From UHGV virus genome UHGV-0045954: 26,836 nucleotides of DNA; one strand, 5' to 3'. This DNA comes from a virus. Position 1 is the first letter of the stretch. Every line of letters begins with the position of its first letter. The notes under the pieces were generated by a model. That model saw only the letters and a list, made by a program, of their open reading frames with translations, was not told the origin of the DNA and did no database searches. A program made the translations under genes and the position numbers. Shown in pieces: positions 16,333-16,741 of the stretch.

Positions 16333-16512
16333 TTACCGCCAGTATTCAATGCACATGACCGCCATGAACACCCCTAAAAAAAGGGCATTTATATATCCAA
16401 ATATTAATATCAAAACATCAACTTTTTCCATATACCTTGCTGTGAAGATGATGGGCATACATGATACGAACAACCAGAACGCAACAAACAAAAACTGCAA
16501 TGCGTTTTTCAT
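16333..16512 (-). CDS. small two-helix membrane protein (59 aa), AT-rich moron
   Basis: ATG at 16512 with GGAGG SD at 5-nt spacing; product MKNALQFLFVAFWLFVSCMPIIFTARYMEKVDVLILIFGYINALFLGVFMAVMCIEYWR; AT-rich upstream region. Confidence 0.5.
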   Translation of the reverse strand: MKNALQFLFVAFWLFVSCMPIIFTARYMEKVDVLILIFGYINALFLGVFMAVMCIEYWR

Positions 16513-16741
16513 TATTCCTCCTACAATCAATGTGCAATTACATTTAAACACACCTCAATTTGGCCGAACATATAAATATCTAAACCAGAAAAAATCACTT
16601 ACATAGCGTTACAAACTCTTTAGTCTAAATATTCATCGTAAAACATTCCCCATACTTATCAGCCCGTTCTGCGCCAGGTAGCTCATTGCCTTATCTGGGA
16701 ATCTGTAATCAGGTTTCCGGATGCTGGTGGATTTTCGCGTT

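Follow-up and report, generated by a model that had tools for sequence, protein, structure and literature searches.

The stretch of DNA analyzed here (the window) comprises 26,836 nucleotides of the virus genome UHGV-0045954 and as a whole represents a lambdoid prophage, the early-right operon of which lies on the minus strand. Downstream of a pR-like promoter (~20273-20244), the minus-strand gene order is cro/ydaT-like, replication initiator, DUF977, DUF7167, ORF59, hok, DUF968, RusA and Q. This report concerns ORF59, an open reading frame (ORF) of 59 codons on that strand (ATG at 16512-16510, stop TAA at 16335-16333), together with the AT-rich segment that carries it, which is flanked by the final nin-like early-region gene on one side and the hok/mok/sok cassette on the other. 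Comparison of two diverged clades suggests that ORF59 is very probably a real protein-coding gene. The fuller reading favored here, which we regard as probable though well short of assured, is that it encodes a two-helix membrane protein, resides on a cargo module, and serves an accessory function that is not obligate in the hok system.

The predicted ORF59 product (MKNALQFLFVAFWLFVSCMPIIFTARYMEKVDVLILIFGYINALFLGVFMAVMCIEYWR) has a grand average of hydropathy (GRAVY) of 1.31 and contains two hydrophobic segments, at residues ~4-25 and ~33-55, for which the 19-residue Kyte-Doolittle maxima are 2.26 and 2.39; between the hydrophobic stretches is the sequence RYMEKVD. An AlphaFold2 (AF2) model built on a 9-sequence family alignment places helices at residues 2-26 and 32-58 with a mean predicted local distance difference test score (pLDDT) of 72; hydropathy and modeling both give the two hydrophobic helices that a preliminary description of this locus had noted. 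The protein is accordingly drawn here as a predicted two-helix membrane hairpin. Given the terminal residues K2 and R59 and a short RYMEKVD loop without net charge, the positive-inside rule would favor an N-in/C-in topology. In the sequence 5' of the start codon (GTAGGAGGAATAATG), the Shine-Dalgarno (SD) motif GGAGG is followed by AATA; the same description had called this an ideal SD with GGAGG at 5 nt, of which the motif stands and the spacing is corrected to 4 nt. One haplotype group carries GGGGG in place of the GGAGG SD.

A phmmer search of 1.84 billion representatives recovered a second clade (clade B, P0037/P0043) that matches the window form (clade A) over its full length without gaps (E = 3.7e-9). 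The clade B protein (MRKILMYLCISIWIVISCVPIILTSEYLTEASIMALMFGHANALCIGVFISIIYIECWR) likewise comprises 59 aa and is 41% identical to ORF59, and a tblastn search with clade B against the phage collection matched ORF59 at 3e-11. The DNA of the two clades is 59% identical, with identities of 58, 73 and 47% at the first, second and third codon positions, respectively (Fisher p = 0.008 for second vs. third), and the Nei-Gojobori proportions of nonsynonymous (pN) and synonymous (pS) differences are 0.33 and 0.72, corresponding to a dN/dS of ~0.19. The two alternative same-strand frames contain 2-7 stops in the same comparison. Because conservation is strongest at second positions and weakest at third, dN/dS is this low, and the other frames are broken, the conservation is of the coding type; the pattern is that of a translated gene on which purifying selection has acted over the long term. 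A total of 19 residues are invariant across the clades (M1, L5, L8, W13, S17, C18, P20, I21, I22, T24, L36, F38, G39, N42, A43, L44, E56, W58 and R59). The codon-position base composition of ORF59 is also non-uniform, with T making up 54% of position 2 (chi-square p = 0.011). A longer, 72-aa form with a GTG start from 16551 is open in the window as well; clade B has an in-frame stop 6 codons 5' of the ATG (read by eye), and the longer form was therefore rejected in favor of the 59-aa form as the conserved product.

The ORF59 family is an orphan made up of two clades of equal length, present only in prophages of Escherichia coli and Shigella. A profile search with both clades returned no third clade, a scan of one genome per species detected the family only in E. 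coli and Shigella, and the close homologues of ORF59 are all at least 92% identical and originate from E. coli or Shigella. One sequence with 53% protein identity (L011) was considered as an intermediate homologue and set aside, as it is apparently the same sequence in a copy rich in indels and possibly of low assembly quality. Among 5426 complete E. coli genomes, clade A is found in 1567 and clade B in 1045 (the two sets may overlap), and one or the other is carried by strains such as CFT073 (clade A ORF at 1346108-1346287 of NZ_CP051263.1), ST131 isolates, Nissle 1917 (clade B, ~1395007-1395407 of NZ_CM189243.1) and the type strain. Clade B occupies a prophage remnant between ttcA and uspF, with Nissle 1917 and ATCC 11775 among its carriers. 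In B2-type strains this interval (L216 3984-6259) consists of a ~2.3-kb prophage remnant at the Rac attachment site. Remnants of DUF977 (4334-4447) and of the C-terminal part of hok (5236-5301) are found there along with a fragment of an integrase and fragments of an ABC-3 permease; the clade B ORF59 (5001-5180) is the sole intact ORF of that remnant. Between the clades, ORF59 shows 59% nucleotide identity vs. 75-80% for the flanking remnants of DUF977 (115 nt) and hok (66 nt), and the ORF59 protein thus appears, from these short alignments, to have evolved faster than its neighbors.

The family appears to be undescribed, with no database family containing it. No significant match came from Pfam, PHROG or NCBIfam for the 59-aa form, the 72-aa form or any family member, the profile matches being at noise level only (TIGR04104, E = 0.2; phrog_6298, 0.019; DUF4212, 0.032); in Pfam, ORF59 had no match at E <= 0.1, while the neighboring hok matched at 1.2e-23. 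DUF4212 (PF13937), a small subunit with two transmembrane (TM) segments, was rejected as an assignment, being matched only by the 4 clade B members (best E = 0.032) and by none from clade A. PADLOC-DB v2 had no match at E <= 1 for the 59-aa or the 72-aa form, a profile search of the PDB gave nothing at E <= 10, and a Foldseek comparison of the AF2 model with BFVD returned generic helical hairpins only, none at E <= 0.001. At a permissive threshold, Rfam found nothing in the AT-rich segment within 15800-16800. A literature search by peptide string had no match, and a term search of a Hok diversity preprint found no passage on a conserved upstream gene.

Several of the observations weigh against the favored reading. 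By its length alone, ORF59 is within chance expectation for its composition: across 5000 dinucleotide shuffles, the longest ORF with an ATG start averaged 44 codons, and the 95th percentile was 73. With just two clades available, the coding inference draws on one deep comparison. Within clade A (~200 copies), in-frame polymorphism comprises 12 nonsynonymous changes to 1 synonymous (pN/pS 2.85), a ratio that fits neutrality (p = 0.26) and rejects an omega of <=0.2 (p = 6e-4), and the neighboring DUF968, rem-like and DUF7167 genes have pN/pS values of 0.12-0.26; by this measure, recent clade A evolution shows no visible purifying selection on ORF59. Frameshift alleles of its T7 and G4 runs form a noticeable minority in the protein database, IS1 is inserted in or beside the gene in some strains, and no lead on function came from PADLOC, Pfam, PHROG, NCBIfam, PDB or the fold search.

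The chance-compatible length and the clade A pN/pS above 1 would both be expected if ORF59 were untranslated and the AT-rich segment were a non-coding spacer or regulatory DNA or RNA. The same explanation would suit the absence of homologues outside E. coli and Shigella, the tendency of T-rich strands to yield hydrophobic translations by default, and the absence of a PGAP call in any RefSeq row inspected: the clade A ORF is unannotated by PGAP in 6 of 6 RefSeq genomes inspected and unannotated in 60 of 60 evenly spaced rows of the 1,568 matching records, as is the clade B ORF in every RefSeq row inspected. We nevertheless judge an untranslated segment to be very improbable, given that both clades retain exactly 59 codons with no indel despite their DNA divergence, that codon-position conservation, dN/dS and the broken alternative frames follow the coding pattern, that a strong SD stands at the right distance, and that the frequent polymorphisms avoid the cross-clade invariant residues. 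The common clade A polymorphisms (V16A, V31I, I37M, Y40H and M53T) all fall at positions that differ between the clades, and the high recent pN/pS is therefore reconciled with a conserved core.

With an anchor independent of integrity, ORF59 is intact in 114 of 117 complete copies (~97%), and the T6 allele was seen in one of the 117. The G4 run (near 16369-16374), like the T7 run, is in helix 2, and the T8, T6 and G5 alleles recur on different haplotype backgrounds (slippage-allele proteins P0019, P0021, P0023, P0024 and P0025); these alleles could be real slippage variants or assembly errors. The ORF59/hok junction is also a recurrent target of insertion sequences (IS) (L007 ~2543-2598; L008 2708-3477). 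The events include an IS1 at window-equivalent 16342 with all upstream sequence lost, an IS1 within ORF59 codons 2-4 with an 8-bp duplication, and an ISNCY-associated deletion at window-equivalent 16070 (L006, L002 and L008) through which hok is lost from its start codon onward.

The opposite strand of the segment holds an ORF of 85 aa, 16349-16606 (+), which could be proposed as the real gene: it is the longest in the segment, its length was reached in only 89 of the 5000 shuffles, and it has been annotated in phage records (ON470612.1 23105-23356, 'hornerin'; PV340562.1 10959-11210, hypothetical protein). These are the two records checked among the three phage records with ORF59, and both annotate the opposite strand with an 83-85-aa ORF; ON470619 also lists 'hornerin' under the match. 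There is next to no chance that this ORF is the gene in question, as clade B has no ORF of at least 40 aa on that strand and the translation is low-complexity, N/K/T-rich and devoid of family matches. Its third codon positions coincide with those of ORF59, and long antisense frames with this property are a known by-product of real genes. Because the antisense frame is not open in clade B, the annotation in the phage records is probably on the wrong strand. The features of the ORF59 locus are collected in Table 1.

Table 1. ORF59 and adjoining features of the minus strand, with positions in the window.
Feature	Position	Strand	Basis or remark
ORF59, gene for 59-aa two-helix membrane protein (predicted)	16333..16512	minus	Sequence, hydropathy, AF2, comparison of clades A and B
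Shine-Dalgarno GGAGG, 4-nt spacer (AATA) to ATG	16517..16521	minus	Sequence
T7 homopolymer, codons 44-46	16376..16382	minus	T8, T6 and neighboring G-run slippage alleles truncate or recode helix 2
AT-rich non-coding leader, upstream gene stop to ORF59	16513..16632	minus	30% GC; partly alignable with clade B leader
AT-rich cargo module, 330 bp (leader, ORF59 and ~30 nt)	16303..16632	minus	Alignment with vB_EcoS-689R5; GC 34.8%
Frameshifted upstream gene, 3' end at stop 16635-16633	16633..16999	minus	PGAP: frameshifted, internal stop; outside ORF59 module
Predicted hok promoter, -35 TTGCGG (16277-16272), 16-nt spacer, -10 TAGAAT (16255-16250)	16250..16277	minus	Top minus-strand site by position weight matrix (PWM)
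5' part of hok mRNA / sok-complementary region	16068..16243	minus	Rfam RF01794, 112 bits
mok (70 aa, from 16130) overlapping hok (51 aa, 15918-16073)	15918..16130	minus	PF01848 1.2e-23; phrog_251 MokW-like; RefSeq HokD
Intrinsic terminator past hok	15832..15849	minus	First predicted minus-strand terminator downstream of pR and ORF59

The GC content of ORF59 is 36.7% and that of the complete module 34.8%, compared with 48.9% for the whole window and 51% for the hok cassette, which bears out the earlier remark that the segment is more AT-rich than its surroundings. That remark had extended to ~230 bp upstream of the ORF; the low GC holds for the ORF and ~120 bp, and the other half or so (16633-16740, 48% GC) is the 3' end of the frameshifted upstream gene, a pseudogene tail. 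The upstream gene is intact (204 aa) in strain A1_136, with its stop at window-equivalent 16633, and in the window it carries a ~43-57-bp indel relative to other copies and a weak phrog_660 match. Alignment with phage vB_EcoS-689R5 shows only ~65 unrelated bp between an upstream gene end and a hok cassette that correspond to those of the window, and match coordinates in Actinobacillus phage pPE4 imply a spacing of ~74 bp at the same junction. By the 689R5 alignment and the pPE4 spacing, 16303-16632 is a discrete cargo module and not the promoter region of hok. The foreign composition and the block indel relative to 689R5, with similar spacing in pPE4, agree with the suggestion of horizontally acquired cargo. 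Full-length matches to the module exist only as 94-100% identical copies in E. coli, and it is complete in 3 of 50,697 phage records. No terminal inverted or direct repeats marking a transposable element were found at the AT-rich segment.

Two further observations concern the borders of the module. At the corresponding junction, 689R5 (L092 2928-3038) carries an unrelated 36-aa ORF that overlaps the upstream stop (ATGA) and enters the hok promoter region. Directly past the upstream gene stop in the window is a palindrome at 16619-16629 (minus strand, TTTAGACTAAA), the clade B counterpart of which (L216 ~4877-4889) reads CTTCAGTCTGAAG; the palindrome is kept in clade B through a change in both arms (T>C with A>G), a single covariation identified by eye. 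This palindrome could be a protein-binding site or a small hairpin.

As the preliminary description held, hok lies directly downstream of ORF59. The hok/mok/sok cassette spans 15846 to ~16290-16302, and its promoter is located just 5' of the first base of the Rfam match, which would put the hok transcription start near 16243. The hok 3' end and terminator (15828-15909, minus strand) additionally give a sub-threshold match to the model of IsrK, an Hfq-binding sRNA (27 bits against a gathering threshold of 50, E = 0.0012). Across 209 clade A loci, what follows ORF59 is in every case either the hok cassette or, in 52 loci, the stump that IS truncation has left of it. In clade B, a remnant of the C-terminal half of hok is found 55 nt past the stop of the intact ORF59 (tblastn, residues 24-45 at 59% identity; blastn, 80% over 66 nt), and a DUF977 remnant is located upstream. 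With hok and DUF977 remnants surrounding the clade B ORF, the neighborhood is read as ancestral to both clades, and the ORF59-hok adjacency as older than the clade A/B split.

An adjacency of this age raises the question of whether ORF59 is a functional partner of hok, either modulating Hok (as an immunity protein, co-toxin or membrane chaperone) or feeding hok mRNA expression through its own transcription or translation. Such a role would be consistent with the unbroken linkage in clade A, with the hok remnant in clade B, with the inner-membrane location of both small proteins, and with the lack of a terminator before the hok promoter, so that ORF59 transcripts must enter hok. We consider it unlikely. 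The hok cassette is matched in 110 phage records, only 3 of which have the AT-rich segment at full length, and is thus complete without ORF59; in 933W, the mokW/hokW/sokW cassette is at the other end of the genome. Strains that lost ORF59 to IS1 still encode an identical HokD (WP_000813254.1), and 689R5 has a closely related cassette but lacks the AT-rich module. Conversely, ORF59 stays intact once hok is destroyed, including in 52 of the 52 stump loci, where hok is cut at 16070 and adjoins an ISNCY transposase pseudogene. Common descent of one neighborhood explains the adjacency, the DUF977 remnant also being upstream in clade B. The two-gene moron that had been proposed for ORF59 and hok therefore finds partial support: the adjacency is present in both clades, and each gene also occurs without the other. 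From their distribution, ORF59 and hok are best described as inherited neighbors and not demonstrably one unit, and our guess is that ORF59 is not an obligate component of the hok system.

A narrower form of the partner idea is that the ORF59 family is dedicated to prophage hokD-type loci, as a Hok modulator or immunity factor, or that its transcription gates Hok post induction. This is permitted because the adjacency is conserved across clades that are only 41% identical; the independent occurrence of hok and ORF59 counts against it, and we regard it as a long shot. If ORF59 were a partner of hok, prophage hokD-type loci would be larger units than hok/mok/sok; in either of the two narrower forms, these type I toxin loci would have three or four components, a protein regulator among them; and an interaction with Hok, a weakly supported link, would change the accepted picture of hok/sok loci.

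The scans lend no support to the suggestion that ORF59 has its own promoter: neither consensus nor PWM scans of the 120-nt leader found a convincing sigma-70 promoter in clade A, and the best nearby candidate (CTGATA-16-TACGAT, score 6.6) is inside the tail of the upstream gene. No minus-strand terminator was predicted between pR and ORF59 or between ORF59 and the hok promoter, and no unusual RNA structure was detected in the leader (z = -0.98). Because ORF59 is co-oriented with the operon, with no terminator upstream and no convincing promoter of its own, read-through would be the simplest expression route. ORF59 would then be transcribed as a delayed-early gene of the rightward early (pR) operon, with transcripts continuing into hok and ending at the terminator at 15849-15832, and in an intact prophage the product would be made mainly post induction or infection. 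In clade B, where the operon context is lost, there is a TTGACA-19-TACGTT site with a perfect -35 and a mediocre -10, suggesting that the prophage-remnant clade may have acquired or retained a better promoter-like site.

Regarding function, the conserved face of the predicted hairpin contains a small-residue motif (G39xxxA43xxxG47), an intramembrane Asn and S17-C18-x-P20. This suggests that the hairpin may work by helix-helix packing in the inner membrane, through self-association or through binding of a host or phage membrane protein. Our conjecture is that the ORF59 protein is a non-essential, moron-type phage accessory that alters inner-membrane function for the benefit of the phage, its candidate roles being to exclude other phages or to modulate a membrane protein of the host. 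The preliminary description had thought of superinfection exclusion or abortive infection, for which PADLOC gave no match. Because ORF59 has been kept in a heavily decayed prophage remnant and its protein appears to evolve fast, it is a reasonable candidate for a phage-host conflict gene.

The same membrane features would also be compatible with a membrane-damaging toxin, type I-like or holin-like, that is kept low in lysogens and acts in abortive infection or post-induction killing. The product is small and very hydrophobic with a conserved GxxxAxxxG and an intramembrane Asn, the gene adjoins that of another membrane toxin, its AT-rich sequence and lack of a strong promoter are consistent with tight silencing, and the recurrent frameshift alleles and IS insertions could mean counter-selection. 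A toxin is nonetheless a doubtful identification. No antisense or adjacent small RNA (sRNA), terminator or structured leader as in type I systems was found for ORF59, and it is outside the lysis cassette and without the charged C-terminal tail of holins. In clade B, 1045 genomes keep the ORF intact behind a good -35 and show no partner gene, which fits an uncontrolled toxin badly. An accessory membrane protein outside the hok system, possibly acting in phage-host conflict, remains the favored reading.

Elsewhere in the window, ~26 C followed by ~74 N occupy 17356-17455, between the DUF7167 gene and the next upstream gene; a 100%-identical reference copy (L001 5105-5115) has only ccgccctttcgggcgg at this position, and the run looks like an assembly or scaffolding artefact in the source of the window. 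Downstream of Q are two tandem copies of the STnc100 sRNA family (11986-12174 and 12450-12643, minus strand; 132 and 138 bits), and a tRNA with anticodon CAT is located at 12994-13069 (minus strand), called Met by ARAGORN and tRNA-Ile by RefSeq. In the leftward early region, a match to the DicF antisense sRNA (22231-22282, plus strand; 77 bits) points to a Qin/dicB-type immunity-proximal module.

Comparing ORF59 with known systems, we begin with Hok/Gef (PF01848), which it resembles as a small prophage-encoded inner-membrane protein that adjoins the cassette in both clades. It is unrelated to Hok in sequence, has two predicted helices instead of one, and is without the periplasmic Cys tail; membership in the family was rejected for want of a PF01848 match and because of the two helices. 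Unlike hok/mok/sok, ORF59 has no mok-like leader ORF, sok-like RNA or fold-back mRNA elements. An assignment as a type I toxin-antitoxin locus by antitoxin or leader was also rejected, since Rfam has no match above noise in 16300-16640 and the leader is unstructured by its z-score, a novel sRNA being possible; no promoter/terminator pair was found on the opposite strand at ORF59. A class II holin with two TM segments was rejected as well, as ORF59 lies in the early region, with the replication genes on one side and Q on the other, and has a C-terminus of only IEYWR. The ORFs of lysis-gene size near 9.7-11 kb are presumably the lysis genes, an assignment made from typical lambdoid gene order only.

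Closer parallels exist among small membrane proteins with regulatory or exclusion roles. AcrZ, MgtS, MgrB, KdpF and CydX are small inner-membrane regulators, mostly with one helix, that are encoded in the core genome and have known partners. ORF59 is like them in its size, its missed annotation, its near-complete composition of TM helix and its conserved face, and differs in having two predicted helices, in being prophage-borne and in evolving fast. T4 Imm is an example of a small phage superinfection-exclusion membrane protein. With Imm-type proteins ORF59 shares its small size, two predicted TM segments and a position outside the lysis cassette; it has no sequence or profile similarity to them and no match to a defense-system model.

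Morons are extra genes between conserved genes of lambdoid phages, defined in comparisons of HK97 and HK022, and classical morons carry their own promoter and their own terminator. The ORF59 module is like them in its foreign GC content (35% vs. 49%), its presence or absence as a block, its location in a nin-like region and its small, non-essential-looking cargo: insertion between neighboring genes and deviant composition are both observed. It is unlike them in that clade A has no convincing or consensus promoter and the sole terminator is past hok, with clade B having the TTGACA-19-TACGTT site. ORF59 is a specific and testable new entry among the catalogued small membrane proteins of bacteria and phages, and a useful test case for annotation pipelines. 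The kind of protein is a familiar one, with ORF59 resembling a small membrane protein borne on a moron.

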